A DNA stretch of 64,000 bases from Syntrophales bacterium (GCA_963662405.2 CAXXKT010000001.1:640001-704000), one strand, 5' to 3'. Positions 5,390 through 54,182 are shown, counted from the first letter of the stretch. Notes: generated by a model from the letters alone, not told the origin. Numbers and translations are program-made.

Positions 5390-5430
5390 TTGACTTTTCC
5401 TTTTTTGAGGGATATAAAAACATTGTTTTT
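5390..5430 (+). promoter_or_regulatory. sigma70 promoter with operator upstream of the second binding protein
   Basis: TTGACT(5390-5395)-N17-TATAAA(5413-5418). Perfect palindrome AAAAACATTGTTTTT at 5416-5430. Confidence 0.75.
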
Positions 5431-17128: not shown

Positions 17129-17130
17129 CA

Positions 17131-38782: not shown

Positions 38783-40150
38783 TCAAGAGAGTTTTTTCCT
38801 TCGATAACGGAAGGTATGATGGTTTAAGTTGAGAAGCTTCGCCGCCTTGGATTCATTCCCCTTCGCGATACGTAATGCCTCGGAAATGTAGTAATCTTCC
38901 ACGGTGCTTTCAATCGAAGAAATATCGACCCCTTCCTCCGTCAAGGGCGGGAAAGAAAAATTCTTTGGGTCGAATGTTTCTGTTTCCACAATGCCGAGGT
39001 CATTTTTTTCTATGGATGGCTCTTGCGCTGTCAGGACGGCTCGTTCGATCATATTCTTGAGCTCTCTGATATTGCCGGTCCAGCGATGGGTTGCGAGTGC
39101 CTCAATCGCCCCATCTGAAAAGTTGGTGAATATTCTCCCGAATTTATCGGAAAAGTGAAGCAGAAAGTGGTGTGCGAGGGGAAGGATATCATCTGGACGG
39201 TCGTTCAGCGAAGGGATAGTCACGACAATGACGGCGAGGCGGAAGTACAGATCCTGGCGGAAGAGTTTGTTATCTATAAGGGTATGGAGATCTTTGTTGG
39301 TTGCGGAGACGACCCGTGTGTGCACCTGCAGCTTCGCGGTTCCCCCAACCCGATAGAACTCACCCTCTTCGAGGAAGCGAAGAAGTTTTGCCTGGGCTTC
39401 CATACTGAGGTCTCCCACTTCATCCAGGAAGAGGGTTCCTCCTCCTGCCGCCTCGATGAGGCCTTTCTTCCCGCTCGTGCTGGCACCACTGAAGGCGCCT
39501 TTCTCATATCCAAAGAGTTCGCTTTCTATCAGATCTTTCGGGATGGCCGCACAGTTGACCGTTATAAAAGGGCCCTTGAAGTTAGGACTTCTATGGTGAA
39601 TGGCGCTGGCGATCAGTTCTTTCCCGGTGCCGGTTTCACCGAGGATCAGTATCGGGGTGTCGGGGCTTTTTGCGACCATCCCGATAAACTTGAGCACATT
39701 ATGTATCTCATTGCTCTCGGCAACAAAACAGGGGATATTCTCTGCGAGATATTCTTCCTGGAGATCCTGGACTTCCTTGCGTAATCGAATCGTACTGAGT
39801 GCATTGCGAATGGTAATTTCAAGTCCATCCATGACGATGGGTTTGACGACATAATCATATGCGCCGAGCTTCATGGCGGAGATGACCGTTTGGATATCCT
39901 CGTACGCGGTGATCATAATCACCAGGATATCGTGACATTCCTTTCTGATATGGTGGAGGGCCTTGATACCGTCCATCCCGGGCAATCCAATGTCAAGGAG
40001 TATCAGGTCCGGAGGGTTTGATTGCATCGACTCGAGGGCGGATTCCGCTGTTGCGAAGGTATATATACGATATTCTGATTCAAGGGAAAAGCGGATACCG
40101 GTTCGTATTATTTCGTCGTCGTCGATGATGTATATGGAGTATTGTGTCAT
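38783..40150 (-). CDS. Sigma54-dependent response regulator (NtrC family)
   Basis: REC domain, GETGTGKE, ESELFGYEKGAFSGA, LFLDE, GNIREL and Fis HTH. Confidence 0.95.
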   Translation of the reverse strand: MTQYSIYIIDDDEIIRTGIRFSLESEYRIYTFATAESALESMQSNPPDLILLDIGLPGMDGIKALHHIRKECHDILVIMITAYEDIQTVISAMKLGAYDYVVKPIVMDGLEITIRNALSTIRLRKEVQDLQEEYLAENIPCFVAESNEIHNVLKFIGMVAKSPDTPILILGETGTGKELIASAIHHRSPNFKGPFITVNCAAIPKDLIESELFGYEKGAFSGASTSGKKGLIEAAGGGTLFLDEVGDLSMEAQAKLLRFLEEGEFYRVGGTAKLQVHTRVVSATNKDLHTLIDNKLFRQDLYFRLAVIVVTIPSLNDRPDDILPLAHHFLLHFSDKFGRIFTNFSDGAIEALATHRWTGNIRELKNMIERAVLTAQEPSIEKNDLGIVETETFDPKNFSFPPLTEEGVDISSIESTVEDYYISEALRIAKGNESKAAKLLNLNHHTFRYRRKKLS

Positions 40151-42207
40151 GCCGTTCGGTTCCCTTGTGTGATCGGAATCTGAAAGACAAATTCAGCCCC
40201 GCCCCACTTACTGTCATGAACCACGATTGAACCCCGATGATCGGTAACGATACGCTGGCATATGCTCAGTCCGATACCCGAACCGTCGTGTTTTGTTGTA
40301 TAAAATGGTTCGAAGATCTTGTCTCTCAGGTAATGGGGGATTCCGGGTCCCGAATCGGCGATCCTGGTAGCAATGATGCCGTTTTCACATGCCGTTGTGA
40401 TAGTGATTATTTTTTCTCCCTCTGAGTGGCTCATTGCTTCGGCGGCATTTGAAATGAGGTTTAAGATCAATTCCTCAATCAGTTGGGGGTTGAGCAGAAC
40501 GTCGGAGAGATTCCCATCGATATCCACCTCAAGTGCGATTTTACTTTTCCGCAGACTGACGGAAGAGAGTTCAACGGCATCCAGTATGGGCTTTTTTATA
40601 TTTCCTGCAATGAGTTTGTGCTCGGTCGGCTTGGAAAAATCCATAACCCGTTTGATAACGGATTCGATTTTTTTTGATGCGGAATGGATCTGCTTATAAA
40701 TTTCAGACGCATTTTCCGGAGGTCCACCTTGCTCATGGGATTTTTCAAGGAGATTCAGGTAGATGTTGATCCCCGAGAGAGGATTCCTTATTTCGTGGGC
40801 AATGCCGGCGGCCACCCGCCCCAGGGATGCCATCTTGTCCTGGATCCGCATGAGTTGGTCCACCTCCTTGCTTCTGGTGACGTCCATCATATTCAGCAGG
40901 AAGGCATCTTCCCCATCGTATTTGATCGATGTTCCATGACAGTGGACCCATCGGAAGTGTGATCCTGTATCGAGGGGAAGCAACCGAAATTCTATGTCTA
41001 TGGAGTCTGAGGCATTCGAAGCGATATCATGAAAAAGCTGTTGCACTCTATCGAGGTCCTCCGGATAAATCATTCTCAGATCGACGGGATGTATCTGCCG
41101 TTCTGGTTGCCCGAACAACCGTTGATGCTCGTGATTGCTATAGACAACGGTCTCGTCCTGGATGATGGAGATCCCTGTCGAGGCGTTTTCCGCGAGATCG
41201 CGGAATCGCTGTTCACTTTCGCGCAACCTGTCCTGGTAATTCTTATGCTCGATCAGCCGCAGCATCCCCTGCATAAGCAGCGTTAACTGCCTGACGTCCG
41301 ATTGATCATAATCTCCCTTCTTGTTCGCAACCCCTGCGATGGCATAAATCGTGTCATTGTTAAAGACAGGGATTCCCATATGCCGACTGAGTTTGACATG
41401 CCCCTTTGGATATCCTCTTTTAAAGTAATTCGGGGCGGTATAGTCGTTGGTGACGATGGGCCTGCGTTGCCGAATGGGCTCTCCCCATAATCCCATACTG
41501 TCAAGGTCAAAAATCCGGGATGGATTTTGAATTTTGGATGTCTTCGCCAAACAGGCGTACAGGGTAACCTTTTTCCCCTCTTCATCGACAAGGGCGATAT
41601 ACCCGTACCGGCTTTTCGTCAGTTTGATCCCTTCAGCGACGGCATAGTTGATGAGATCCTCGAGAGAAGCCCCGTCTGCCATCTGATTCAGTTTCAACTG
41701 TGTCTCAAGGCGCGCTTCGTCGAGGCGCAGGGCCTCTTCATTCTGTTTTCTTTCGGTGATATCAAGGTACGAGGCAATGCTTTGATTAGATCCGGCAATA
41801 ACGGCGACTGTTGCCATGATATCCTTGACATTTCCCTGCTTGTCTCTGAATTTGAATTCGTAGTTGCGTGGGACAAGTTGGGGGGCGATCCTCCGGACGG
41901 TGTGATATGCGATCATCGTATCCAGCATATCTTCATCCGCCACGAAGGTATTCCAGCTTATCTTTCCTTCCATCTCTTCCTTGGAGTAACCGGAGAGTTT
42001 TTCAAATTCACGGTTGGTTAAGGAGATGGTCATGTCGTTTTCCGAAATAATCATTGCCGTTCCGGTGTTTTCAAAAATGGTCCGGTACTTATACAGATCT
42101 GCGGTAGTGATATTCTGGTCCCTCAGCGTTTCCTCGTAGTTCAATCTCTGACGAAGTTTGTTGAGTTCACGAATCAATTGCCGTTTTGTTTTCTTTTCAT
42201 CTCTCAT
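40147..42207 (-). CDS. Cytoplasmic PAS-GAF-PAS sensor histidine kinase
   Basis: AHEIRNPL H-box, DSGPG and GSGIGL boxes, no TM segments. ATGA overlap with the regulator. Confidence 0.93.
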   Translation of the reverse strand: MRDEKKTKRQLIRELNKLRQRLNYEETLRDQNITTADLYKYRTIFENTGTAMIISENDMTISLTNREFEKLSGYSKEEMEGKISWNTFVADEDMLDTMIAYHTVRRIAPQLVPRNYEFKFRDKQGNVKDIMATVAVIAGSNQSIASYLDITERKQNEEALRLDEARLETQLKLNQMADGASLEDLINYAVAEGIKLTKSRYGYIALVDEEGKKVTLYACLAKTSKIQNPSRIFDLDSMGLWGEPIRQRRPIVTNDYTAPNYFKRGYPKGHVKLSRHMGIPVFNNDTIYAIAGVANKKGDYDQSDVRQLTLLMQGMLRLIEHKNYQDRLRESEQRFRDLAENASTGISIIQDETVVYSNHEHQRLFGQPERQIHPVDLRMIYPEDLDRVQQLFHDIASNASDSIDIEFRLLPLDTGSHFRWVHCHGTSIKYDGEDAFLLNMMDVTRSKEVDQLMRIQDKMASLGRVAAGIAHEIRNPLSGINIYLNLLEKSHEQGGPPENASEIYKQIHSASKKIESVIKRVMDFSKPTEHKLIAGNIKKPILDAVELSSVSLRKSKIALEVDIDGNLSDVLLNPQLIEELILNLISNAAEAMSHSEGEKIITITTACENGIIATRIADSGPGIPHYLRDKIFEPFYTTKHDGSGIGLSICQRIVTDHRGSIVVHDSKWGGAEFVFQIPITQGNRTA

Positions 42208-42249
42208 CGTTTCAACTGCCTGATAGGTCGCGGTTACTGCGTTGCAGAA

Positions 42250-42266
42250 AGCAAGGAGCATGCCAA
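42250..42266 (-). promoter_or_regulatory. sigma54 promoter for the kinase/regulator operon
   Basis: Minus strand TTGGCATGCTCCTTGCT, matching GG-N10-GC. Confidence 0.7.
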
Positions 42267-42402
42267 TCCGGATGGTATATTAGTCCAAGTCACCTGGTTC
42301 TGTCAAACAAATGGCATGAATAGGATTTTTGCTACTTTTCCCTTCAAGAGGAACGCCCATAACCATAAGGAAAGAGAAAATATCGATGTTGATACAAAAT
42401 AC

Positions 42403-42437
42403 TTTCGCAAATTTGCAAAATATTTTCGCAAAATTTC
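42403..42437. promoter_or_regulatory. Putative enhancer (UAS) repeats
   Basis: TTTCGCAAATTTGCAAAA followed by TTTTCGCAAAA, between the two divergent sigma54 promoters. Confidence 0.5.
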
Positions 42438-42526: not shown

Positions 42527-42542
42527 TGGCATAGCTTGTGCT
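42527..42542 (+). promoter_or_regulatory. sigma54 promoter for the rightward operon
   Basis: TGGCATAGCTTGTGCT, matching GG-N10-GC. Confidence 0.62.
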
Positions 42543-42590
42543 CAGGGGGTGGGGAGAGCTTCTATTATTGCAAAAGGATCATCAGGCGAC

Positions 42591-42983
42591 GTGAATAACC
42601 CAACGGCCCTTCATGGAACAAGAATATTGCTTATCGATGATGACCAGTGGATCAGAGACTCCATGACTTTGTACTTTGAAGCGGAAGGATGTCATGTCCG
42701 ATCTTTTGCCACGGCTGAGGAAGGCCTGCCTGTCTTTCAGGACGATATGTGGGATGTGATCATAGTCGATTATCACCTGCCGGGTATGGATGGATTGATG
42801 ATGCTCGATCAGATTCAGAACCGCCAGGAAGGAGTCATAAAGGTCCTGATTACCGCGTATACAAGTGATACGGCTATTTCACGTGCCCGTGACGTCGGTG
42901 TCAACGCTTTTATCGAAAAACCATTTACGGCGGATGACATTGAGACGACGCTTGTGCGACTGCTTCACGAGCGAAGTGCCTGA
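42591..42983 (+). CDS. Single-domain response regulator
   Basis: LLIDDD, VDYHLPGMDG, ITAY and EKPF motifs. Confidence 0.88.
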   Translation: MNNPTALHGTRILLIDDDQWIRDSMTLYFEAEGCHVRSFATAEEGLPVFQDDMWDVIIVDYHLPGMDGLMMLDQIQNRQEGVIKVLITAYTSDTAISRARDVGVNAFIEKPFTADDIETTLVRLLHERSA

Positions 42984-43060
42984 GAGGCGGGCGATGGATT
43001 GGTCCGGTAAGACTGTCCATGGTGCGTTGAACGAATATCATGTGATGAGAGGTAGAAACC

Positions 43061-44896
43061 ATGAATAGAAAATCTTATGTCAGATCTGTTCTTCTGATCG
43101 TAGCCGGCATACTGCTGAACCTGGGCATTACATATGTGATCGAATGCTTGGAGGGATCAGTGCCGTTCGATCATGTCGGGACTGTCTTTGTGGCAATCCT
43201 TGGCGGACCGATTGTGGGTGCTGTGGTGGGGCTGGTGAGTGTTCTGCTGTCTGCATTGCTGCAGTATGGGATTGGACTCATCGATGGGATGAACAGTGTC
43301 AACGGGGCCATATTGGGATGCCTTGTTGGCTGGCTGGCAGGACGCGGATTTTTCAAGGAATTTTGGAAAGCGATCGTCCTGGCCGTCGTGGCGGTGTTTG
43401 TGTATGCCTCCATTGTCATGCTCATTGTCACCTATGTCAGGATGACCGGATTCGGTGTGGGGTTCTGGTCCGGTATTGCCGAAGCATTCGCTTACCCCCT
43501 GGCGGTCATGAAAGATTTTATGGGGACCCTCTGGTTTGTCTTTCTCGATAAATTCTTCACCGTCCTGATCTTGTGGGCCTTTTTCAAACTGGTAGGGACG
43601 ATGCTTTTTCGGGGTGTGGCCCAAAATCCACCCACCCTTCCGGCAGCCATTAACACACAGAAGCTCGGAACAAAGCTTGCGGAAATCCCGATCGTGGGTC
43701 CTGTCTGGAAGAAGTTCGTACGTCTGGTCACTATCGTATATGTCGATTATGTTCCCCAATTTCAAAAAGGGAGCGAAACGGTAAAAACGCTCAAGACCTC
43801 GGAGGAGGAACAATACATGTTTAATCAGTACAGAGGATATGGTTTCAGATTACCGCAAAACATTTCGGAGTGGAACAAGGTCAAGGTGCAACTTGTTATC
43901 GGAACGATTCAGTTCGCCGGGGCGAATCATGATCTGCTCAATAAGGAGACAGTGGCACAACAGCTGAATCTCGGCATCGATGAAGTCACCAAGCGGATCG
44001 TCAGGATGTATAACGATCATCTTCTCTTGGTCCCCACCGATGCGGCGTTACAGACTGTTGGTTTTGCGCTGTTCTACATGGTGGTGAAACTGAAGAAGGG
44101 GACGTCTGACAAAAGGAAACAGGAAATATCAGCAATGATCCGCGACAACGATTATGCCTGCACCAGTTTTGAAACAGCGGGTGATTATGATTTCTTCCTG
44201 GGTGCTCATATTACGACCATTGATAACCTCTATAAAACTGTTTTGAAAGAGCTGTATGCCTTACCGGAGCTTGAGGAGCTGACACTGCTTCCGGTCCAGC
44301 GCATGTTGCGGCAGGAGCGTTTGAATCACTGGGATATGAAGACGGATCTGTGGCGGGAAGCGGCATTGATCGAGGGGGAATTGGATAAGCTGGCAGCGAT
44401 TCAGAGTGCACTGGACAAGACGGATCTCAAGATCCTTGAGGTGCTGATGAAGAAACGGGAGATCACCGAATATCTGAATGTCAATTTCCTGTCGAAGAAA
44501 AAAGAGGCAGGCGAGGCGATACTGCGGACACTTGATGAGAAGCGCCTTTTCGTATCACCGGTATTCCTGAATTGGATGAAGCTCAATTATAAGCCCTATT
44601 TCTTTGTCGTCAAATTCAATGAAAAGACCGACTGTGACAAAAAGATAGAACTATCGGACCATCTGGTTGAGACATATCCGGAGTTCAATCTCGCCCTTCA
44701 AGTGACTGATACTTACTATGATTTGTTCCTCGGGAGTTATCAAGGATTGGCGAATGTCGAGGCCGTGAAGAAGGCACTCAAAGAAACACCGGGAGTTGAA
44801 GATGTCAGAGAGATGGTTGCGACACGGCAGCATCGGATGTGGACGACCAAACTATCGGAAGAGAACTGGGGTGAATGCGTCATGATGTGGGAGTAG
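43061..44896 (+). CDS. ECF S-component-like membrane domain fused to tandem Lrp/AsnC-fold domains
   Basis: N-terminal 5-6 TM with DHVGTVFVAILGGP..G and LDK..T. C-terminal HTH-like VAQQLNLGIDEVTKRI, RAM-like ETAGDYDF and a second LDKTDLKILEVL unit. Confidence 0.7.
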   Translation: MNRKSYVRSVLLIVAGILLNLGITYVIECLEGSVPFDHVGTVFVAILGGPIVGAVVGLVSVLLSALLQYGIGLIDGMNSVNGAILGCLVGWLAGRGFFKEFWKAIVLAVVAVFVYASIVMLIVTYVRMTGFGVGFWSGIAEAFAYPLAVMKDFMGTLWFVFLDKFFTVLILWAFFKLVGTMLFRGVAQNPPTLPAAINTQKLGTKLAEIPIVGPVWKKFVRLVTIVYVDYVPQFQKGSETVKTLKTSEEEQYMFNQYRGYGFRLPQNISEWNKVKVQLVIGTIQFAGANHDLLNKETVAQQLNLGIDEVTKRIVRMYNDHLLLVPTDAALQTVGFALFYMVVKLKKGTSDKRKQEISAMIRDNDYACTSFETAGDYDFFLGAHITTIDNLYKTVLKELYALPELEELTLLPVQRMLRQERLNHWDMKTDLWREAALIEGELDKLAAIQSALDKTDLKILEVLMKKREITEYLNVNFLSKKKEAGEAILRTLDEKRLFVSPVFLNWMKLNYKPYFFVVKFNEKTDCDKKIELSDHLVETYPEFNLALQVTDTYYDLFLGSYQGLANVEAVKKALKETPGVEDVREMVATRQHRMWTTKLSEENWGECVMMWE

Positions 44897-44964
44897 CAAT
44901 CTCCTCGGCAGCGATGGCATATGAGCGTGGGTGGATGAGTAGTCGGTAGATTTGAGGTTGTAAA

Positions 44965-46191
44965 GTGACAAGCTTCAAGCAGTTTGCAGCACGACAGGCA
45001 TTAAAATTTTATCCTGATTTTCCGGAAGAATTTATAGAATACCTGGTTGAAAAACTTCGATGGGAAAGACTTGGATGGTTCCAGGGGAGAGTGATTATTA
45101 ATTCATATTTCCCTCCCATTCCCAGCAGGGCCGTGAATAGTGTCGTGAAGGCCTGGCGTTCAGGGATGAAGGGACGGGTTGTCCCCGAGGTAGCCACGGT
45201 AGCCGTGACCAATAAATGTCCTTATAACTGTCTGTATTGCAGCGTTCCTGACAAGACCGTCAGCGATATGTCTGCAGATCTTCTCAAACGTACGATCGGG
45301 CAGATCCAGGATATGGGAAGTTTCCATATCTCATTGACCGGCGGAGAACCGCTGTTACGCGATGATCTTGAAGATATTATCGCCTCCGTAGACGATCGCT
45401 CCGTGGTAAAGCTCTTTACGACAGGGTATTCTTTGACGAAAGAGCGGGCAAAGGCACTGAAAAAAGCGGGGCTCTTCTCGATCAACATCTCTCTCGACAG
45501 CGGTGATCAAGACATTCACGACCATGGGTGTGGATTTGATGGGGCATTCGATATCGCGTTGCGGGCGATCGAACATGCGAAACAGGCATCTCTCCTGACC
45601 TGCGTGGCGACTGTGGCGTCGCACAACGGTGTCTTGGGTGGAGAAATGAATCAGTTCTTGCGGTTTCTAAAAAAACAAGGTGTCGATGAGGTGTCGATAT
45701 TTGAACCGGCACCGACGGGGAAAATGTCGTTTCATGAGGAACTGCTCTTGAGTGATGACGAGCGAGAGGCATTGCACGATCTGCATAAGGAGATCAACGA
45801 AAGCGCGGACAAGAGATATCCGCGGGTCTTTTCATTCCCCTATGTGGAAGGCGCGGATTATATGGGATGTGGGGCCGGTTGCACACGGTTACATGTGACC
45901 GCACTGGGCCACGTGACGCCCTGTGATTTCACCTCGATTTCGTTCGGAAATATTCAACGAGAAAACATTGAAACGATATGGGACCGGATGAAGAGGTATT
46001 TCAATCAGCCGGACTGCGGTTGTTTTATATGCCATAATTTCAAGGAATTGAGAGGCATGTATGACGATCGGTCCGGTATGGCTGATGGTGATATGCTGGT
46101 AAAGAGAGGTAAGATGATGAAGGAAAGTCATCCACCGGCATTTTATAAATTGTTGATGGTGACGCAAGATACAAAACCAACGATATTTTAG
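44965..46191 (+). CDS. Radical SAM protein with SPASM/twitch domain
   Basis: TNKCPYNCLYC, LTGGEPLLR, ISLDS, GCGAG...VTPCDF...GNI and CGCFIC. Confidence 0.9.
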   Translation: MTSFKQFAARQALKFYPDFPEEFIEYLVEKLRWERLGWFQGRVIINSYFPPIPSRAVNSVVKAWRSGMKGRVVPEVATVAVTNKCPYNCLYCSVPDKTVSDMSADLLKRTIGQIQDMGSFHISLTGGEPLLRDDLEDIIASVDDRSVVKLFTTGYSLTKERAKALKKAGLFSINISLDSGDQDIHDHGCGFDGAFDIALRAIEHAKQASLLTCVATVASHNGVLGGEMNQFLRFLKKQGVDEVSIFEPAPTGKMSFHEELLLSDDEREALHDLHKEINESADKRYPRVFSFPYVEGADYMGCGAGCTRLHVTALGHVTPCDFTSISFGNIQRENIETIWDRMKRYFNQPDCGCFICHNFKELRGMYDDRSGMADGDMLVKRGKMMKESHPPAFYKLLMVTQDTKPTIF

Positions 46192-46201
46192 GAGGAACGA
46201 C

Positions 46202-46450
46202 ATGTCGAATGAGAATGAGGGGAAAATTATAGCAATTATTGCCGAAGTGTTTGAAATGAGTAAGAAAGCAGTGACGAGAGACAAGGATTTCGTCAAGGAT
46301 TTCAAGGCAAAATCGATCAAAATCATAGAGATGTGTGCGATGCTCGAAGATGAGTTCGATATTGAGATCGATATGGAAGACGCGCGAAAAAATGCGACGG
46401 TTGGTGAAGCTATTGACTATACGCTGGAACTTATCGATGCGCAACAGTGA
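46202..46450 (+). CDS. Acyl carrier protein (atypical AKS motif)
   Basis: 82 aa with DFKAKSI..E..AMLEDEFDIEI...TVGEAIDY. RBS AGGAGG. Confidence 0.85.
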   Translation: MSNENEGKIIAIIAEVFEMSKKAVTRDKDFVKDFKAKSIKIIEMCAMLEDEFDIEIDMEDARKNATVGEAIDYTLELIDAQQ

Positions 46451-46480
46451 TACGCGGTTGCTAAGGAGGTGACGCTCTTA

Positions 46481-47482
46481 ATGGAGAAGAATAATACATT
46501 CATAGATGATTTGAAGGTTCGTGTCCAGGGAAAAGGAATACGGGTTGTGTTCCCTGAAGCCGAAGAACCTCGTATCCTGAAAGCCGCATCGATCGCACGG
46601 GCTCAAAATATCGCCATTCCCATACTGGTAGGAGATCCGCAAAAGGCACATGATATTGCAAAAGACCACGGCATCGATATTACCGGGATGGAGATCATTC
46701 TTCCCGAGGAATCCGTACAGTTTGATGCCTATGCGGAGACATATCGTGCATCAACGACACTCCGCGAGGGAGCTGTGAGAAGATTGTTAAAAAAACCGGT
46801 TTTCTACGCGGATATGATGGTGAAGGTGGGAGATGCGGATGCCATGGTCGGCGGTGCGGTGTACGAAACGGCGACCGTGATTATGGCGGGAACCATGGTA
46901 ATCGGGATGAAAGAGGGAGCATCCACTCCGTCGAGTTTCTTTGTCATGGATATCCCCGGATTTGAAGGAGGAGAGAACGGCAAACTCATATTCGCGGATT
47001 GTGCTGTGGTCCCGGACCCGAGTGCCGAGGAGTTGGCTGACATCGCCATAGCGAGTGCGGATAGTGCGAAAAAGCTCCTGGGTTGTGTTCCCCGGGTCGC
47101 CATGCTCTCGTTTTCGACGAAGGGGAGCAGCCTGGAGCCCCCGGTTGAAAAGGTTATTCGTGCAACGGAAATAATCAAGGAACGGAGGTCGGATATATTG
47201 GTGGACGGGGAATTACAGGTAGATACCGCCATTGTTCCCGCGATCGCTCAGAAAAAGATCAAGGGGAAAAGCCCCGTTGCCGGTCAGGCCAACGTACTGA
47301 TCTTCCCGGATTTGAACTCGGGGAACATCGGGTACAAACTGGTCCAGCGCCTGGCGGGGGCCGACGCGATCGGTCCTCTCTTGCAGGGATTTGCGAAACC
47401 GGTGTGTGATCTGTCCCGCGGTGCAACCGTGGAGGATATCATTGGTTCGATCGTAATGACGGCGATACAGGCGATCGATTAG
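46481..47482 (+). CDS. pta: Phosphate acetyltransferase
   Basis: VVFPEAEEPR, FADCAV, VAMLSFSTKGS, DGELQVD, GNIGYKL and DLSRG motifs. Confidence 0.93.
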   Translation: MEKNNTFIDDLKVRVQGKGIRVVFPEAEEPRILKAASIARAQNIAIPILVGDPQKAHDIAKDHGIDITGMEIILPEESVQFDAYAETYRASTTLREGAVRRLLKKPVFYADMMVKVGDADAMVGGAVYETATVIMAGTMVIGMKEGASTPSSFFVMDIPGFEGGENGKLIFADCAVVPDPSAEELADIAIASADSAKKLLGCVPRVAMLSFSTKGSSLEPPVEKVIRATEIIKERRSDILVDGELQVDTAIVPAIAQKKIKGKSPVAGQANVLIFPDLNSGNIGYKLVQRLAGADAIGPLLQGFAKPVCDLSRGATVEDIIGSIVMTAIQAID

Positions 47483-47492
47483 GTTCAGGAAG

Positions 47493-47882
47493 GTGAATCC
47501 CGTGATTTATGGTGTTGGGATCGATATCGAAAAAAAAGATCGTTTGCGAAAGGCATTGGAGCTCAATGAGCGGGCGTTTCTGAAGTATGTGTTCGCCCCG
47601 CAGGAGGTGTCCTATGCACGGAGGCAGGAGGATCTGGTGTCGCATCTGACGGCTATTTTTTCTGCGAAAGAAGCGGTTCTCAAGACCGTGGGTACCGGTT
47701 GGAAAGGCGGGGTCAGGTTGACCGATATTGAGATCTGCCATGATTCTCATGGGAAGCCGGAGGTCGTCTTGTCCGGGAATCTTCAAAGGATAGCTGCCTC
47801 ACGTCATATCACGACAATCATGGTGTCGCTTTCTTATGAGGATACCTATGCGGTTTCTTACGCCGTCGCCCTGACCGGGTAA
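47493..47882 (+). CDS. acpS: Holo-ACP synthase (4'-phosphopantetheinyl transferase)
   Basis: GVGIDI, FSAKEAVLK, GKPEV and VSLS motifs. Confidence 0.9.
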   Translation: MNPVIYGVGIDIEKKDRLRKALELNERAFLKYVFAPQEVSYARRQEDLVSHLTAIFSAKEAVLKTVGTGWKGGVRLTDIEICHDSHGKPEVVLSGNLQRIAASRHITTIMVSLSYEDTYAVSYAVALTG

Positions 47883-47955
47883 GAGCATGTAGCAATAGAG
47901 GGTAGGGAACGTGAAACAAAAGATAAACAAAACGACTGTAAGAGAGGAGAGTCAC

Positions 47956-49137
47956 ATGGGAAAGATTCAAAAAAGATTTGGGTTGCTGTTTGCATTGATT
48001 GTTGCGTGTGTCTTTTTAGTGAGTGTCTCGGTTGTCGGCGCGGAAGATAAGTATTACTGGCCGCCTGAGAGAGGCTACCATAAGCTTTTACCGTTTGCGA
48101 AAGAGTATCTGAAGAAGGAAAACACATCGGGCTATGCATTGGCCAAGGCAACGAGAACGGCGGATATCGTCAACCTCGACTATGTGACGCAAAAGGTAGG
48201 GATCAGCAAGAAAGAGGCGGCAAAACGAATTAACAGAATGTTCGACGAGCACCTCATTCGACTGACGGCGGATTCTCCCATCGATAATCGAGGATTCGGA
48301 CTTTATTATACCGCTATAAAGCTGAAACCCGAAGCAACCCCGGAACAGAAGGCGAAACTATCCGAGATTATGCAGAATGAAGATCATGTCTGCACCGGGT
48401 ACGAGGTGGAAGGTGACTTTGACTTTGTTCCGGCGTTCCATGTGACGACACTGGAGGTGTCCGAAAAATATGTCAGGTCCTATTTCGAAAAGTCAGGTGT
48501 CCTTGAGTCGTATCAGTTGCTTCCCATTCAGAGAATTCTCCGTCAGGAACGTATTAATCATTGGGGTGCTCCGATTTCGATGTGGAATGAGGTCGTATAT
48601 GCCCCCAACGAATTCGAAAAACTTGCCAAGATCCAGGACAAACTGGATATAACGGACCTGAAGATCATAGAGGCGATGCAGGAAAAACGAGCGGCAAAGG
48701 ATTTTTACAACTGGGATTTTGTTGCCAAGAAGACCGGTCTCAAAAAAGACGGCCTGATCAATGGACTTGAGCACGCCTGGGCTGAGCGGATGTTTGTGCT
48801 GCCGGTTTTTATGAACTGGATGAAATTAGGGTACACGAATCACATCTTCTTCGTCAAGATGAGCAGGAAGCTGACCTCGGATGAGAAACTCGCAATCGGT
48901 GACAAATTTGCTGAAAATCCTTCATTTAATCTGGTTTTCCAGTTCAACGACTGTGAGTTCACCTATGCCCTTGGCGCCTGGACAAAACTGACCGACATCG
49001 ATGCCCTCAGAGATGCAATCAAGGGTGTCAGTGGTGTAGAGGGAATCAAGGAAGTCAACCTGACCAGACAGTGGAGGCAGTGGACGTGCCGCCTGGATGA
49101 TGACAACTGGGATAACTGCAAGTATTGCGTCGATTAA
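47956..49137 (+). CDS. Tandem Lrp/AsnC-fold protein with N-terminal signal peptide/TM anchor, paralogue of the C-terminal part of 43061-44896
   Basis: MGKIQKR, hydrophobic stretch, VGA|ED. Shares LLPxQRxLRQERxNHW, PVFxNWMKLxY and TRQxRxWTxxL..NW..C with the 611-aa protein. Confidence 0.75.
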   Translation: MGKIQKRFGLLFALIVACVFLVSVSVVGAEDKYYWPPERGYHKLLPFAKEYLKKENTSGYALAKATRTADIVNLDYVTQKVGISKKEAAKRINRMFDEHLIRLTADSPIDNRGFGLYYTAIKLKPEATPEQKAKLSEIMQNEDHVCTGYEVEGDFDFVPAFHVTTLEVSEKYVRSYFEKSGVLESYQLLPIQRILRQERINHWGAPISMWNEVVYAPNEFEKLAKIQDKLDITDLKIIEAMQEKRAAKDFYNWDFVAKKTGLKKDGLINGLEHAWAERMFVLPVFMNWMKLGYTNHIFFVKMSRKLTSDEKLAIGDKFAENPSFNLVFQFNDCEFTYALGAWTKLTDIDALRDAIKGVSGVEGIKEVNLTRQWRQWTCRLDDDNWDNCKYCVD

Positions 49138-49150
49138 TGAGTCCTCTATC

Positions 49151-49187
49151 GAAGTGGGTGAGGGATGTGTGTCCCCTCGCCCACTTC
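49151..49187 (+). repeat. Intercistronic hairpin
   Basis: GAAGTGGGTGAGGGA...TCCCCTCGCCCACTTC, with no U-tract. Confidence 0.6.
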
Positions 49188-49238
49188 ACCCCCTGCAGTA
49201 TGAAAGAAATTCGAATTAGTTGGTAAGGAGTTTGTAAT

Positions 49239-50459
49239 ATGAATATCCTGACGTTTAACTGCGGAAGCTCATCGCTGACGTACAAGATATTTCGAGCCGG
49301 GTCCGATGACGATATAGAGATCGCCGTATCCGGAAAGGCTCACCGTGTCGGTGTTACCGGAAGTGAACCATCTTTCATTGAACACAACTATAACGGACAA
49401 TATGAAAAAAATACACTGCCCATAGCGAGTCATCGGGAAGCCGCGGCGCTTGTATTTCAATATGTAAAAAAAAACGGCATACCCATTGACCTTATCGGTC
49501 ACCGGTTTGTTCATGGTGCAACATATTTCCCGAGGACCGCGATCATTACGGATGAAGCGTTAGAGACGCTTGAAATTTGCCTTCCTTTTGCCCCCCTGCA
49601 CAATCCTATCTCCATGAGTGTCATTAAAGAGTCACGCGCGACGCTCCCTTCGGTGAAGGAATATATTACATTTGACGGGGCATTTCATTCAACCATACCG
49701 GATTATGCCTATACCTATGCGCTACCGGATGAGGTTATCGAACAATATGGATACCGGAAATACGGTTTTCACGGTTTATCCTTCCAGTATGTCAGTGGGG
49801 AATCGGCACGATTTCTGAACGTCCCGCTGGAAGAGTTGAAGTTGGTGATGTGTCATCTCGGTACCGGGGGATCAAGCGTCTGTGCCGTAAAAGACGGTTA
49901 TTCCATAGACAATTCTCTCGGATACACGCCTCTCCCGGGGCTCATCATGAGTACCAGATCGGGTGACATCGATCCAATGGCCGTCATCTTTCTGATGAAC
50001 AACTATGGATATACCCCGGATAACCTGGAGGCCCTTTTGAACAAAAAGGGGGGAATCTTGGGAATATCAGGATTCTCGAGTGATCCGCGCGATATTATCG
50101 AAGCGATCAAGACGGATGAGACAAAACGGGATATCGCACAGCTCGCCCTTGATATGTATGTACAACGGCTGAAAAAATATATCGGCGCCTATATTGCGGT
50201 CATGGGGGGGATTGATGCACTGGTATTTACCGATGATGTCGGGGTCCTGAGCGCGGTGATACGGGAAGAGGTGTGCAAGAGCATGGGCTGGTGCGGAGTT
50301 GAGCTTGATTATGATCTCAATCGAACCGTCGACCCGAAACAGGATTCCATCGTGAGTACGGAGCAATCAAAGGTATACGTCATGACGGTTCCCACAGCCG
50401 AAGAACTGGTTATCTGCCGGGAGGGCCTGAAACTACAAAGAGAAGGAGAAGCAGCATGA
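49239..50459 (+). CDS. ackA: Acetate kinase, Entamoeba-like (putatively PPi-dependent) subtype
   Basis: NCGSSS, GHRFVHG, APLHN, YGFHG, MSTRSGDIDP and EEL motifs, with variant loops HLGTGGSS and FTDDVG. Confidence 0.9.
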   Translation: MNILTFNCGSSSLTYKIFRAGSDDDIEIAVSGKAHRVGVTGSEPSFIEHNYNGQYEKNTLPIASHREAAALVFQYVKKNGIPIDLIGHRFVHGATYFPRTAIITDEALETLEICLPFAPLHNPISMSVIKESRATLPSVKEYITFDGAFHSTIPDYAYTYALPDEVIEQYGYRKYGFHGLSFQYVSGESARFLNVPLEELKLVMCHLGTGGSSVCAVKDGYSIDNSLGYTPLPGLIMSTRSGDIDPMAVIFLMNNYGYTPDNLEALLNKKGGILGISGFSSDPRDIIEAIKTDETKRDIAQLALDMYVQRLKKYIGAYIAVMGGIDALVFTDDVGVLSAVIREEVCKSMGWCGVELDYDLNRTVDPKQDSIVSTEQSKVYVMTVPTAEELVICREGLKLQREGEAA

Positions 50460-51499
50460 TTGTAATTTTTGATCCTCAGCCGCCTTTCATCCGATGGTAC
50501 AAAATGACAGAGAGCGGCTTCACAGAGAAGCAGTGTATATATCAGAACGGTTGGGAAAAAGAAGTCTCGGCTGATCTCGAAGGGATCACCGGTGCCGCCT
50601 ATGTCTTGTATAACGGGGGCGATGAAATCGTCACATCACCGGTCACTATTGATCGGAGTCTTATGGCAACAGTTGAAAAGACTGTTCCCTTGTCACCTGA
50701 GCGTAATAAGATGACCCTTGAGGCAATTCGTTACTGCTATGAACAGATGCCCGGAATTCGGCATACCATTGTCTGTGAAACGGCATTGTATGGTGCCCTC
50801 CCGCCAAAATCCCGAAATTATGCAGTCCCCCTGGAACTCAGAGAGAAGGGAATAAAGCGCTACGGTGGATATGGGCTGGAACATGGATACATGGTGGAAA
50901 AGGTAAAACCGGTATTAGGAGATGCGCATCATAAGGTGATCAGTGTCTTCCTGGGGCCTGAAACCAATGTGACGGCCTTTGAAGATGGCTGTCCATTGGA
51001 GACATCAATCGGTTTTAGTACTGCGGAGGGGATCCCTTCCCTCCATGGTTGCGGTGATACCGACGCCTCGTTTGTCTTTCTGATGCAGGAGGCCGGTTGG
51101 GCACTCAAGGATATCGCCCCGGTTTTTTCTCAAAAAGGTGGACTCTGTGCGTTGATGGGAAAAGAAGATAGTACCTTAGGCGATATCCTCCATGCCGGAG
51201 TAGACACTATCGCCTACAAGGTGCTCCGATATTCCGTAATAAAATATATGGGAAATGCTGTCGCGCAACTGAGAGGGGCTGATGCCTTTCTCATACACGG
51301 CGAGAATCCGATTAAAACGGTGGGGCCGTTTATTCGGGATGTATGCCGGAATTTTGAGTTCATCGGCCTGACCTGTGCAGAGACAGATGAAGAATTGCCG
51401 GGAGGTTTGTTCATTCTTTCCGGGAAAGAATCATCGATAAAGGTGTTGTATGTCCAGTGCGCCAGGCCCGAACTGCTCGGAACATGCGTCAATCAGTAG
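50456..51499 (+). CDS. Degenerate acetate-kinase-like protein (pseudokinase)
   Basis: Collinear with AckA (YAVP..L...GIKRYG, ETSIGFS..EG, GDTD) but the catalytic motifs are replaced. Intact 347-aa ORF with an ATGA overlap with ackA. Confidence 0.75.
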   Translation: MIVIFDPQPPFIRWYKMTESGFTEKQCIYQNGWEKEVSADLEGITGAAYVLYNGGDEIVTSPVTIDRSLMATVEKTVPLSPERNKMTLEAIRYCYEQMPGIRHTIVCETALYGALPPKSRNYAVPLELREKGIKRYGGYGLEHGYMVEKVKPVLGDAHHKVISVFLGPETNVTAFEDGCPLETSIGFSTAEGIPSLHGCGDTDASFVFLMQEAGWALKDIAPVFSQKGGLCALMGKEDSTLGDILHAGVDTIAYKVLRYSVIKYMGNAVAQLRGADAFLIHGENPIKTVGPFIRDVCRNFEFIGLTCAETDEELPGGLFILSGKESSIKVLYVQCARPELLGTCVNQ

Positions 51500-51742
51500 T
51501 GCACCGAGCTTCCCCGCATCCGTTTTTTCGTTCTCCTTCAGCGGGTGGGGGGGCCGATATATAGGCAGATATAACAAGCAGATTCTGTACCTTTGAAGTC
51601 CTGCCTCGCTTGGATCGGGGGGGTATTTACACAACAATCATTCCGGTTGAGGAAATACCCCCCGATCCTTTTTTCCTGTATAGGTGTGTTGCCAGGATGG
51701 AAGCAACATGCGTGGGTACGGCAGGCTCCCCTGTCCTTCCCG

Positions 51743-52189
51743 TTACGCCGGATCCGTTCCGGTCGGCAGGGGTTCATCTCCAAGAACCAGTTCGGGTTGT
51801 CCACGCGAGCGGCGAAGATGATTGATGAATCGGAGCGTGGAACCGCGGGTGACAAGCCACCGTTCGAACCGGAACTTCCCGGGGAAATTCATGAGCGCGA
51901 TCCCGAGCAGGATCGTCAGGATACCCTGGCCGGGAAGCACCAGCAGGGTAATGCCGGACAGGACAAACACGACGCCGAAAAAGTTTTTCACGATCTGGAG
52001 CAACAGCCATATAGCTGGCCGCTCCCGGTGTATCGTGGACAACCCGGGCCGTCTCCGCCCGGAGAAATAATCTTCCGGAATTCGGACCACCACCCACGGA
52101 ACGGCCGCCAGGGCTCCCGCGAACACCACGAGCGAGACCCCCGCTATCCCGAAAAAAAGCATCTCATGGTTCTGAATCCAGCCGAACAT
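51743..52189 (-). CDS. PGPGW-domain membrane protein
   Basis: RIPEDYF and LVLPGQGILTILLG..FPGK..ER motifs. Confidence 0.8.
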   Translation of the reverse strand: MFGWIQNHEMLFFGIAGVSLVVFAGALAAVPWVVVRIPEDYFSGRRRPGLSTIHRERPAIWLLLQIVKNFFGVVFVLSGITLLVLPGQGILTILLGIALMNFPGKFRFERWLVTRGSTLRFINHLRRSRGQPELVLGDEPLPTGTDPA

Positions 52190-52600
52190 TTACCCTCTCT
52201 TGCTCATCAGTTCAAAGATAGCGCCCCCCGGCCCTCCCGCGTCGAGATAGGCAAAACGTCCCGGGTCATGGATGAGAAGATTGGCGCCCTCCTCGACCAG
52301 CCGGGCGACTTCCGCGTCGACATCGTCGACGAAAAACCCGAGGTGATGGACCCCTTCGCCCCACTTGTCGATAAATTTCGACTGGAAGATTCGACCTTCC
52401 AGGGACTGCACCAATTCGATTTCCACCGGTCCCACATAGGCGAAGGCCATGCGGATCTTCCAAGGCCGCCCTTTGACATCCGTTCCCCCGTTTTCCTGAA
52501 ACGTCCAGGGACCGATGCCGTAGAGCCGGGACCAGGTCTCGATAGTCGCATCGATGTCGGTGACTGCGTAACTGATGTGATCAATAGATTGAATCTTCAT
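52190..52600 (-). CDS. VOC family protein (methylmalonyl-CoA epimerase/glyoxalase-like)
   Basis: IDHISYAV, EIELVQ, GEGVHHLGF and IFEL motifs. RBS GAGGAGG. Confidence 0.88.
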   Translation of the reverse strand: MKIQSIDHISYAVTDIDATIETWSRLYGIGPWTFQENGGTDVKGRPWKIRMAFAYVGPVEIELVQSLEGRIFQSKFIDKWGEGVHHLGFFVDDVDAEVARLVEEGANLLIHDPGRFAYLDAGGPGGAIFELMSKRG

Positions 52601-52612
52601 AACACCTCCTCT

Positions 52613-52673
52613 TGCTAATATGCTTTTCAGCAGTCGCGGTTTTTTCTGGTCCGCTGTAAAAGTCTTGTTAGGC
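52613..52673 (-). mobile_element. Integron attC site (R' degenerate)
   Basis: Minus strand GCCTAAC (R'', overlapping the stop), then CTTTT-A-CAGC...GCTG-AAAAG with one extrahelical base, then ATTAGCA. Length 61 bp. Confidence 0.7.
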
Positions 52674-53486
52674 TATTTTGCTACATTCAATTTCGTATCG
52701 TGTTTTTGAAATAGATATGCCATAAACCTCAGCATCCAGTCCATTTTTATGCACTATGTCTATTACTTCTGATTCTAAATTTGGAGCAGCATGCGCACCA
52801 ATATAAATACTTTTAATGCTGTCTTTGGGAATATCGAACAGATAAATTGGATACCCTGATTCATCTACGTTTGGCGACCTTTTAGTGCGTTCAGTAAAAA
52901 TCCTGAGCACCCTTACTTCTTCTTCATACGCCCAGTCGATTGGTTTTTCACACAACAACTTCTCATAGTAATCAAAGTCTTGCAGGGTAGGAGCGCTACG
53001 TTGCTTGGTATATCTTACTTGGCTTGGGCATGTTCCAAGGCCAAGATATGATTTTTGATAAAAGAATTCATGTGATTCATCGAAACCAATCACAAAACCT
53101 TTGTGGCGATCGGCATAATGAGTCCACATCAATAAATTACTAAATGTTCTTGAAAGAGAAAGTATACCGATCCTTTTATTTAACCAATCCATCAGTTCAC
53201 GTCCCACATTTGATGAGGACATTTTTTCAAGGAGATGAGATTTTAATGATCGAACTTCTTCATCCAATATTTTACAGTTCTCTGATGTTTTTTCTTCACC
53301 TACCGTGTTTTCACACAAATCAAATCTGTAACGTTCTATTTGATCCATTAAATCACTAATACTAGAACTCATGTCTATCAAAGGTGACCCCTCAAAAGGA
53401 TCATTTAATGCTCTAGGCTGGGAAAATCGAATCTCTAAATTCTTCAGAACTTGGACTCTATTTGGAGGTAAGTATTTATAAAACAT
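52668..53486 (-). CDS. DUF2971 domain protein carried as an integron-type cassette
   Basis: FYKY, LNDPFE, NLLMWTHYADRHKGFVIGF and K..DWAYEEEVR motifs. Visibly AT-rich. A GTTAGGT core site lies just 5' of the start. Confidence 0.85.
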   Translation of the reverse strand: MFYKYLPPNRVQVLKNLEIRFSQPRALNDPFEGSPLIDMSSSISDLMDQIERYRFDLCENTVGEEKTSENCKILDEEVRSLKSHLLEKMSSSNVGRELMDWLNKRIGILSLSRTFSNLLMWTHYADRHKGFVIGFDESHEFFYQKSYLGLGTCPSQVRYTKQRSAPTLQDFDYYEKLLCEKPIDWAYEEEVRVLRIFTERTKRSPNVDESGYPIYLFDIPKDSIKSIYIGAHAAPNLESEVIDIVHKNGLDAEVYGISISKTRYEIECSKIA

Positions 53487-53584
53487 GAGTTATCTTTATT
53501 GACCTAACAACCATCGTTTATCTGGATCCTGACAAAAACCCCAACACGGCAAACTTGCCGAATGAAACTCCTCACAAAAAACAA

Positions 53585-53617
53585 AAAGCCCATTTCTCAT
53601 CGTGAGAACAGGGCTTT
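53585..53617 (-). terminator. Terminator-like hairpin
   Basis: Minus strand AAAGCCC-TGTTCTCA-CGA-TGAGAAAT-GGGCTTT followed by a T-rich run. Confidence 0.55.
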
Positions 53618-54182
53618 CGGCAATCCGATCATAATCTCCCCCCTTGGACTACGATTAAGGGAATATACATGAGACATGGTTAATGAAGCAACGATACCGA
53701 TCTCTTAGCGTCATCATCGTATCCTGTCAAGAAATATTGCCGGCAACATGATGGATGTACGAGGCTCTCCGGAGATGTCGATGGAGACACCCGTGGTGCG
53801 CGCCGGGTCGCTGGCATTGTTTGTATTGGATAAGGATATTCCCGCTCAGATACACTGTATTCGGATCCCTGGAAACGGAACGTTCGCGATGCCCCCGAGG
53901 AGCCCCGGCAGGTTCAATCGGGGAAAGTGATCTGCATATCAGCCGAAAACCTTTTGAATTTGTTTTTAAAATTCGCGTTTACCTGCAGCCGTTTGTATGA
54001 TGTTGTTTCTCTCCGAGGCCGTTGCACGGAGATTGGTCAAATATCTGGTAGCATTCAAACGAAAATCATGATAGGCGCTACAGGGTAAAATGAACGGGGG
54101 TCATTCTTTCTTGAGTTGCCGGAGACAATAGGTATTTCGGTGCCTTTAACCATCAAAACATAGTATTAGGAGGAGGTAAAGT

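Follow-up and report, generated by a model that had tools for sequence, protein, structure and literature searches.

The 64,000-nucleotide stretch of Syntrophales bacterium DNA analysed here (GCA_963662405.2, CAXXKT010000001.1:640001-704000), hereafter the window, contains a block of nine co-directional open reading frames (ORFs) on the + strand (42549-51499), with intergenic gaps of 10-101 bp and a 4-bp overlap between the final two. Protein families in the window were assigned by Pfam and NCBIfam profile scans, and folds by AlphaFold models and Foldseek. The resulting calls agree with the gene-by-gene list proposed in an earlier, sequence-only reading: a receiver protein, a fusion of an energy-coupling factor (ECF) S component with an Lrp-fold domain, a radical S-adenosylmethionine (SAM) enzyme, an acyl carrier protein (ACP), Pta, AcpS, a second Lrp-fold protein with a signal peptide, AckA and a degenerate AckA, here called AckA2. 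Every part has a known family or fold; the combination matches no described pathway. The two uncharacterised proteins, ECFS-Lrp2 and SP-Lrp2, share a tandem Lrp/AsnC fold like that of the siroheme decarboxylase NirDL, referred to below as Lrp2. The nine genes are best explained as one inducible functional module. Two unrelated associations connect Lrp2 with enzymes for the interconversion of acyl thioesters, acyl phosphates and acids: its operon form is accompanied by Pta and AckA, and a soluble sister form by the alpha subunit of an ADP-forming acyl-CoA synthetase (ACD).

The first gene is directly preceded by a GG-N10-GC motif of the sigma54 type, and the arrangement described in the sequence-only reading, nine closely spaced co-directional genes behind such a motif, is borne out by the ORF calls and by the match at 42527-42542 (Table 1). 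Within the 64-kb window, TGGCAY-N6-TGCW is matched at two sites where 0.37 would be expected, and at least two copies arose in 6 of 100 shuffles. Genes for a sensor kinase and a sigma54 activator lie upstream, divergent from the operon, and sigma54 is encoded in the host genome. By sequence, the operon therefore carries the three marks of predicted sigma54 dependence: the -24 GG/-12 GC motif, an activator nearby and rpoN in the genome. Co-transcription of the nine genes is plausible, because the gaps are small, a consensus terminator scan matched no intergenic site within the operon and a candidate terminal hairpin stands ~115 nt past the stop of the last gene. That scan listed 12 sites in the window (9.0 +/- 3.2 expected), those on the + strand all intragenic, and did not list the hairpin. 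An ORF at 51593-52618 (+) was considered as a tenth gene and rejected: it has no family match, overlaps two Pfam-matching ORFs on the - strand and lies beyond the hairpin. On the opposite side, the second sigma54-like motif, TGGCATGCTCCTTGCT, overlaps the longest-ORF start of the histidine kinase gene; the true start of the kinase may fall 3' of 42261, and the kinase and activator genes may themselves be sigma54-dependent.

Table 1. Genes and sequence features of the operon and its upstream regulatory genes (positions in the window)
Feature	Position	Strand	Basis
Single-domain receiver (CheY-like)	42549..42983	+	Pfam Response_reg 84.5 bits
ECFS-Lrp2, 611 aa	43061..44896	+	AlphaFold (AF2) model and Foldseek; weak Pfam/NCBIfam ECF-S matches
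Radical SAM enzyme, C-terminal auxiliary-cluster domain	44965..46191	+	Radical_SAM 87.3 bits and SPASM 29.7 bits
ACP	46202..46450	+	PP-binding 37.6 bits
Pta	46469..47482	+	PTA_PTB 352.7 bits; TIGR00651
AcpS (holo-ACP synthase)	47493..47882	+	ACPS 68.8 bits; TIGR00516
SP-Lrp2, 408 aa; database start 47956	47911..49137	+	AF2 and Foldseek; no Pfam family
AckA, Entamoeba type	49239..50459	+	Acetate_kinase 392.6 bits; motifs
AckA2, degenerate AckA, 347 aa	50456..51499	+	Acetate_kinase 114.2 bits, profile positions 76-383 only
Sigma54-type promoter motif TGGCATAGCTTGTGCT (GG-N10-GC), directly 5' of first gene	42527..42542	+	Pattern match
Tandem 21-nt direct repeat, 86% alike, ~90-130 bp 5' of promoter	42395..42436	.	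Candidate activator site, by position
Second sigma54-like -24/-12 motif TGGCATGCTCCTTGCT, pointing to kinase/activator genes	42250..42265	-	Pattern match; function inferred
Sensor histidine kinase (PAS, GAF, PAS, HisKA, HATPase_c)	40147..42261	-	Pfam
Sigma54 enhancer-binding response regulator (REC, AAA+, HTH_8)	38783..40150	-	Sigma54_activat 216.3, Response_reg 96, HTH_8 30.5 bits
Long GC-rich hairpin then U run, candidate intrinsic terminator	51612..51674	+	Minimum free energy -31.3 kcal/mol, z -2.57

SP-Lrp2 and the C-terminal 370 residues of ECFS-Lrp2 are paralogues with 35% identity. Models built from family alignments (pLDDT 89.0 and pTM 0.86 for SP-Lrp2; pLDDT 82.5 for ECFS-Lrp2, with 57-90 in its membrane-domain part) contain in both proteins two units, each made of a winged helix-turn-helix (HTH) and a beta-alpha-beta-beta-alpha-beta element. 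The Lrp/AsnC fold that had been suggested for both from sequence was checked with these models, and NirDL is the top Foldseek match of each, as 4czc for SP-Lrp2 (E 1.6e-10) and as 4ch7 for ECFS-Lrp2 (E 1.2e-8). Superpositions on NirDL give TM-scores of 0.43-0.53 at a root-mean-square deviation (rmsd) above 10 Å, and single Lrp/AsnC regulators rank next. The relationship is distant at the level of profiles: neither protein reaches the Pfam cut-offs of HTH_AsnC and RAM, although the fold is present, and the AhbA model gives 18.9 bits for SP-Lrp2 against a cut-off of 140 and no match for ECFS-Lrp2. SP-Lrp2 has no Pfam family at all, and its sole NCBIfam matches are LysM- and AhbA-type Lrp models (E 5e-5 and 1e-3). 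ECFS-Lrp2 stays below the Pfam cut-offs of ECF_trnsprt (25.7 against 30.7 bits) and AsnC_trans_reg (16.4 against 25) and below that of the NCBIfam CD3073 family (21 against 180 bits). Searched against the PDB, the Lrp2 family profile finds Lrp/AsnC regulators (PH1519) only at E 6.1e-5, through the generic turn of the RAM domain. Cys146 and His162 are conserved in Lrp2, where the aligned regulator residues are Val and Arg, and the family has its own N-terminal motif, P-R-G-x-G-F, and C-terminal tail, W-x-C-R-L-D...W-x-E-C. With regard to the catalytic histidines of siroheme decarboxylase, one conserved His specific to Lrp2 was seen. A Cys-His-Asp acyl-transfer triad was considered and dropped as unsupported; a simple hairpin register would place Cys146 on the opposite sheet face from Asp143 and His162. 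Databases label Lrp2 'AsnC family transcriptional regulator' or hypothetical protein, the ESM Atlas holds only nameless or generic clusters for Lrp2 and the radical SAM enzyme, and no NCBIfam model exceeds its cut-off for Lrp2, the radical SAM enzyme or AckA2.

The two Lrp2 proteins differ in what precedes the shared domain. ECFS-Lrp2 is composed of a membrane domain with the S-component fold (residues ~1-186), a disordered linker (181-246) and the C-terminal tandem Lrp/AsnC domain. Its N-terminal ~186 residues align with the whole of the riboflavin S component TmRibU (5kbw_B; TM-score 0.71 on the target, rmsd 4.2 Å, 178 columns, 19% identity, E 5.8e-3). No EcfA or EcfT gene is found in the operon, and one EcfT-family gene is located elsewhere in the genome. 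S components have both termini in the cytoplasm, and for that reason the fused Lrp2 domain is probably cytoplasmic. At the start of SP-Lrp2, basic residues lead into ~20 hydrophobic ones, followed by a small-residue site. Since this N-terminus is signal-like, as are those of a 72%-identical relative and of divergent copies at two other loci (L017 and L018), all judged by eye, SP-Lrp2 is probably exported or anchored facing outward. The sequence-only reading had spoken of two membrane-tethered Lrp-fold proteins; the pair is more likely a cytoplasmic domain carried on an S-component fold plus one exported paralogue. A plain regulator is an unlikely role for Lrp2 in this operon, given the signal-like N-terminus of one copy and the membrane domain joined to the other.

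The Lrp2 family alignment, scanned once against genomes and once against metagenomes, yielded 28 loci, four of the window type and 24 with soluble Lrp2. Two metagenome contigs hold genes for ECFS-Lrp2, the radical SAM enzyme, ACP and Pta in the window's order, together with AckA. In L020, AckA (55% identity to the window protein) and AckA2 (36%) are divergent from ECFS-Lrp2 (59%), the radical SAM enzyme (58%), ACP (73%) and a Pta (67%) that is truncated where the contig stops; in L019, ECFS-Lrp2 (71%, cut), the radical SAM enzyme (59%), ACP (73%) and Pta (72%) are accompanied by an ATP-type AckA (36%). The ACP gene lies directly 5' of Pta in all three loci that have both. L017 and L018 have ECFS-Lrp2 (60-69%) beside a free membrane protein of 181 aa and a divergent Lrp2 that bears a signal (29-32%), and the sequence ends shortly after. 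The position of this membrane protein between the two Lrp2 genes suggests split and fused forms of one pair. The free protein (L018:11274-11819, L017:1302-1847, both on the - strand) aligns weakly, at 21%, to the S-component-like domain. Short contigs that match pieces of all operon regions at 90-98% identity come from three other studies, in four DNA runs, of which two may represent a single data set; no RNA run was among the public runs listed. Contigs of equal size (15932, 12657, 13673, 23274, 11235 and 9867) recur for homologues of the radical SAM enzyme, AckA2, SP-Lrp2 and ECFS-Lrp2, and these matching contig sizes alone suggest six more linked loci. In L020, a FolE2-type GTP cyclohydrolase-like gene (5387-6163, - strand; PF02649, 84.8 bits) begins 1 bp past AckA2 and is followed by a CMD-family gene; neither has a counterpart adjoining the window's operon. 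In the full-text literature searched, PMC6615313 and PMC9324843 included, with supplements and most subscription journals outside its scope, no description was found of such a gene set or of a pairing of Lrp2 with an ACD alpha subunit. The suggestion that this is a conserved, undescribed unit thus withstood both comparisons: homologues co-occur on other contigs, and the literature gave no matching pathway.

The other 24 loci encode a soluble Lrp2 of ~410 aa. The gene directly 3' of it, often overlapping, encodes an ACD alpha subunit in 22 of the 22 informative loci, that is, those with downstream sequence, the remaining two being too short. This subunit is built from CoA_binding_2, Succ_CoA_lig and Ligase_CoA_2 domains; its members are mutually 66-79% identical, keep the phospho-histidine motif of the solved enzyme and score below the TIGR02717 cut-off (420 against 567 bits). 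An ATP-grasp beta gene adjoins it in 0 of 22 loci, and three of the four genomes searched hold no convincing ATP-grasp beta (their best ATP-grasp_5 matches, in ORFs of 428-905 aa, are no stronger than E 4e-6). A sigma54 activator (PAS-AAA+-HTH_8) lies directly 5' of soluble Lrp2 in 15 of 22 loci, and no conserved neighbour of the pair was found there besides this activator. This compact module (L001-L004, L021-L039) has as its named hosts a Clostridium, Syntrophomonas wolfei subsp. methylbutyratica, a Clostridiaceae isolate and metagenome-assembled genomes (MAGs) of Solibacteraceae and KSB3. Complex prediction for soluble Lrp2 with ACD alpha (alignments A5 and A6) scored 0.01 against a mark of 0.32, a value that bears on binding neither way. 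A tree of 31 Lrp2 domains resolves four groups. The soluble proteins form one clade (98/96 support) and the fused ones another; the signal-bearing pair of the window is the third group, and L017/L018 make up the fourth, on long branches.

Lrp2 is very rare. It forms 11 clusters at E<=1e-3 among 5.77e9. Among 1.84e9 representatives its profile finds 160 sequences at E<=1e-3, a count that drops to 52 at 1e-10 and to 30 at E<=1e-30; about a dozen are full length. Six relatives from the next tier were tested, and all six are generic tandem Lrp/AsnC regulator-like proteins. AckA2, at 19 clusters (E<=1e-20), is rare as well. No Lrp2 was found in 40 relatives, from genus to order, or in 400 genomes sampled from the phylum. 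Since every relative searched lacks the nine-gene module, it seems to be an acquisition. Base composition is lower in GC than the surroundings, as the sequence-only reading had judged by eye: the block has a GC content of 0.490 against 0.577 and 0.542 for the flanks and 0.536 for the genome. The contrast is modest, however, with 12.65% of 9-kb genome windows lower still. No insertion site was definable from a search of the two flanking genes in four related genomes: the best match of each, at 74% and 84% identity, comes from the same genome but from separate contigs, and within the genus the identity is only 40-47%. The 64-kb window contains no tRNA. Just past the operon, a DUF2971 gene (52668-53486, - strand) falls in the window's most AT-rich kilobase (53001-54000, GC 0.41) and possibly belongs to the same acquired stretch.

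The operon Pta exceeds the TIGR00651 cut-off (327.9 against 311.2 bits), matches solved Pta proteins at E 7.9e-79 and is the sole PTA_PTB member in the genome, as AckA is its sole full-length AckA. None of 7 genomes from the same genus has a full-length AckA; the counts are 2 of 24 for the same family and 8 of 16 for other families of the order. A third, partial match to the acetate kinase family, C3:331962-332258 (profile positions 2-102, E 5e-10), has an in-frame TGA and lies inside a 346-aa open frame elsewhere in the genome. The best solved match of AckA is 4h0o (E 2.4e-106), the Entamoeba histolytica enzyme, which the available part of PMC5517563 gives as the sole acetate kinase known to use inorganic phosphate/pyrophosphate (Pi/PPi) and as strongly favouring acetate formation. 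Two marks are listed there as common to this enzyme and four bacterial candidates: a second Gly that lengthens the PHOSPHATE2 loop, and an Asp within the ADENOSINE motif. In the bacterial candidates a further Asp replaces a Gly that is invariant in ATP enzymes; these candidates are from Anaerolineaceae, and that part of the paper mentions no operon context like this one. The window and L020 enzymes carry HLGTGGSS (PHOSPHATE2) and FTDDVG (ADENOSINE). Judged by these motifs, the window AckA has the longer loop with the second Gly and the ADENOSINE Asp and has lost the invariant Gly, as expected of an Entamoeba-type enzyme, and is a candidate Pi/PPi-dependent kinase, in line with the PPi-type acetate kinase named in the sequence-only reading. 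The genome encodes an H+-pyrophosphatase. AckA2, in the window and in L020, has FDPQPP in place of FNCGSS, AAYVLYNG in place of GHRFVHG, GYGLE in place of FHGLS and LHGCGD in place of STRSGD, and PT-x-EE is missing. These correspond to the PHOSPHATE1 N-x-G-S-S-S loop and to the catalytic Arg, His, Arg and Glu. The alignment thus confirms that this paralogue is a degenerate AckA, or pseudokinase, that has lost its kinase motifs.

The radical SAM enzyme contains CX3CX2C, and four C-terminal Cys are conserved across three orthologues. It had been called a SPASM enzyme; the SPASM match reaches 29.7 bits, and the four conserved C-terminal Cys compare with the seven of a SPASM motif that serves two clusters. 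Because only these four are conserved, a C-terminal domain with one auxiliary cluster (twitch-like) would fit better than a full SPASM domain. The closest solved structures, SkfB, BlsE (a decarboxylase), MoaA and PqqE, are twitch-type enzymes and are reached only at ~E 1e-10; sub-threshold NCBIfam matches are to AhbD (102.6 bits), NirJ2 (90.1) and AhbC (70.9), and the enzyme stays well short of the cut-off of every NCBIfam model. Its relatives comprise 18 clusters at >=52% identity, followed by a broad family at <=45%, and 1149 reach E<=1e-40. Within the wider family (35-45% identity), from Latescibacterota and metagenomes, many proteins are ~670-aa fusions with a SAM-dependent methyltransferase domain. 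The ACP has a conserved Ser in 'AKSI', shares 73% identity with its counterparts in L019 and L020, and passes the PP-binding cut-off of 20.8 bits while remaining below that of the housekeeping AcpP model (59.4 against 70.45 bits). AcpS narrowly exceeds the TIGR00516 cut-off (60.7 against 59.8 bits). Both are extra copies in the genome, which holds three further PP-binding matches and a second AcpS (C1:2530146, 36% identical to the operon copy), in keeping with the dedicated ACP/AcpS pair proposed earlier.

The reading that we favour, held with less than even confidence, is an inducible route in which a carboxylated substrate is imported, processed on ACP by the radical SAM enzyme and released as acetyl-phosphate, which ends as acetate plus PPi or ATP. 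The PAS/GAF kinase and sigma54 activator would turn on the promoter at 42527 through the 21-nt repeats. Exported SP-Lrp2 would capture the small carboxylated substrate, and the S-component-like domain would hand it inward to its own cytoplasmic Lrp2 domain. The Lrp2 domains would serve as modules for ligand binding or for catalysis without a cofactor, and not as regulators that bind DNA. An exported paralogue has no ATP, CoA or DNA to work with, so the role common to the family is most simply one of these two, by analogy with NirDL. The substrate would then be carried as a thioester on the dedicated ACP, made holo by AcpS, while the radical SAM enzyme performs a difficult radical step and Pta frees an acetyl unit as acetyl-phosphate. 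Among the proteins of the set, only Pta could exchange an acyl group between phosphate and the thiol of a pantetheine. It also always follows the ACP and, by analogy with PlsX, may serve this carrier. Finally, AckA, probably dimerised with the dead AckA2, would turn acetyl-phosphate into acetate, passing the phosphoryl group to Pi to yield PPi for the H+-pyrophosphatase, or, in some relatives, to ADP. An acid-forming, energy-conserving end of the pathway is suggested because Pta and AckA are sole copies in a mostly AckA-less lineage and because the Entamoeba enzyme favours acetate. ACDs, the partners of the sister form, usually run towards acid.

Several observations weigh against this route. 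S components normally bind trace vitamins, which suits salvage more than bulk catabolism, and it is unusual for a catabolic ACP to carry an AcpS-type arm. The scores of Pta are those expected of any CoA-dependent enzyme of its kind, and its use of the ACP is something we purely infer. The AckA of L019 carries the ATP-type motifs HLGN-GAS and FTAGIGEN, so PPi is not essential to the module. Soluble Lrp2 relatives occur without the radical SAM enzyme or ACP, which argues for an Lrp2 role independent of both. L019 has no AcpS gene separating Pta from AckA, and L020 has no receiver gene at its head; these two genes lie outside the conserved core. The phosphoryl donor of the bacterial AckAs with an Asp-Asp ADENOSINE motif is unassayed and is stated as unknown in the available part of PMC5517563. 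The same parts can be read equally well in reverse, as an outward relay akin to Dlt: AckA and Pta would convert acetate to acetyl-ACP, the radical SAM enzyme would modify the acyl group, and the membrane domain would pass it to the exported Lrp2 and on to an envelope or periplasmic acceptor. This biosynthetic reading, which we regard as rather unlikely, draws on the presence, in one operon, of a membrane protein and an exported paralogue alongside a dedicated ACP that has an AcpS of its own, on the adjacency of ACP and Pta in three of three loci and on the lack of any other ACP-loading enzyme in the set; the likeness to DltABCD is taken here as an analogy. It must contend with an Entamoeba-type AckA that favours acetate formation, with soluble Lrp2 and ACD alpha pairs that have neither exported partner nor ACP, and with the lack of an acceptor-specific transferase family among the Pfam and NCBIfam calls. 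A broader proposal would take Lrp2 as a new family of cofactor-free enzymes or substrate-handling subunits that works with acyl-thioester and acyl-phosphate enzymes in two forms. One would be an ACP-dependent radical pathway in which Pta acts as an acyl-ACP:phosphate acyltransferase and the Entamoeba-type AckA makes PPi; in the other, Lrp2 would partner an ACD alpha subunit lacking an ATP-grasp subunit. That all of this holds jointly is unlikely.

Alternatively, Lrp2 proteins could be regulators, either as subunits or as membrane-tethered transcription factors, that sense an amino-acid-like ligand and set the flux through Pta/Ack or ACD alpha accordingly, with the radical SAM enzyme, ACP and AcpS forming a separate sub-function. 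Their database name, the retained HTH-like segments, the profile likeness to PH1519, G-D-x-D turn of the RAM domain included, and the regulator-like character of all six next-tier relatives tested speak for such a role. Yet with the signal-like N-termini of SP-Lrp2 and its 72% relative, a protein with an HTH would sit outside the cytoplasm; the operon already has its kinase, activator and receiver, the family-specific Cys146, His162 and terminal motifs fall outside the generic Lrp pattern, and NirDL demonstrates the same fold as an enzyme; we consider regulation an unlikely account of the family. NirDL, the top structural match of both proteins, also invites a role in salvage or modification of tetrapyrroles or vitamins, with Lrp2 binding a carboxylated macrocycle delivered by the S component and an AhbC/AhbD/NirJ-like radical SAM enzyme trimming its side chains. 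The resemblance of the membrane domain to a vitamin-binding S component and the sub-threshold AhbD, NirJ2 and AhbC matches are in line with this, but those matches are no better than the ones to MoaA or PqqE, the AhbA score of 18.9 bits is far from its cut-off of 140, Pfam reveals no tetrapyrrole gene in the cluster, and ACP, Pta, AckA, AckA2 and the ACD alpha partner would be left unexplained. We regard this tetrapyrrole or vitamin reading as quite improbable. Sigma54-controlled pta-ackA operons exist in sulfate reducers and Pta and AckA are the only genome copies here, as would be expected if an ordinary acetate operon had by chance become interleaved with unrelated genes. The mixed set nevertheless recurs in a different arrangement at 36-73% identity, Lrp2 and AckA2 are both very rare yet apparently share contigs, and AckA is lacking in most relatives, so a chance neighbourhood can be given very little credence.

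The operon offers a bacterial candidate for a Pi/PPi acetate kinase in a conserved genetic context, and because the host also encodes an H+-pyrophosphatase, PPi-level energy conservation from acetyl-CoA becomes directly testable. If the Entamoeba-type AckA makes PPi, the operon would constitute a PPi-level substrate-level phosphorylation module in a bacterium; if Pta serves the carrier protein, a new mode of ACP loading or unloading would follow; and if the orphan ACD alpha works with Lrp2, it would represent a new form of a central fermentation enzyme. The analysis also defines a very rare siroheme-decarboxylase-fold family, twice independently tied to acyl-CoA and acyl-phosphate enzymes, that is now labelled a transcription regulator. 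Elsewhere in the window, a 1428-aa BadF/BcrA-type CoA-enzyme activase with DUF2229 (32419-36705, + strand) lies beside a TetR gene and has a 74%-identical copy in one related genome, and a 747-aa ORF (16366-18609, + strand) contains two ThyX (Thy1) stretches, far exceeding the usual length of a flavin-dependent thymidylate synthase.

Among known systems, the operon is closest in part to Pta-AckA acetate operons, with which it shares a canonical Pta, a full-length AckA, a sigma54 promoter and a divergent kinase/activator pair. The pta-ackA genes of Desulfovibrio vulgaris are under sigma54 and two-component control. Here, in contrast, acpS and an Lrp-fold gene split pta from ackA, the radical SAM and ACP genes precede them, a dead AckA paralogue follows, and AckA is of the Entamoeba type. 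The six-helix fold predicted for the N-terminal domain of ECFS-Lrp2 is that of ECF S components such as TmRibU (5KBW), but ECFS-Lrp2 is fused to a 370-residue Lrp-fold domain, its family scores fall under the cut-offs, and the operon has no EcfA or EcfT. Solitary S components do exist, for example BtuM. PlsX, which moves acyl groups between carrier-protein pantetheine and phosphate, and DltABCD, which combines a dedicated carrier protein, a membrane protein and an exported partner, are functional analogies only; Pfam and NCBIfam scans found no PlsX, DltA, DltB or DltD family in the operon. The siroheme decarboxylases NirDL and AhbA-AhbB have in common with Lrp2 the tandem winged HTH and RAM fold and a radical SAM gene alongside (NirJ, AhbC or AhbD); unlike them, the operon is without tetrapyrrole genes, and its membrane fusion, export signal and ACP, Pta and Ack partners have no counterpart there. 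The window AckA shares with the Entamoeba enzyme (4H0O) a PHOSPHATE2 loop lengthened by another Gly (HLGTGGSS in the window protein), and its Asp-Asp ADENOSINE motif matches the bacterial candidates from Anaerolineaceae in the available part of PMC5517563. The ACD alpha subunit of the sister form resembles the solved ACD (4XYL; E 1.1e-84) in its CoA-binding and ligase domains and His motif and differs in always lying 3' of an Lrp2 gene without an adjoining beta gene; the overall chemistry of ACD parallels that of Pta plus AckA.

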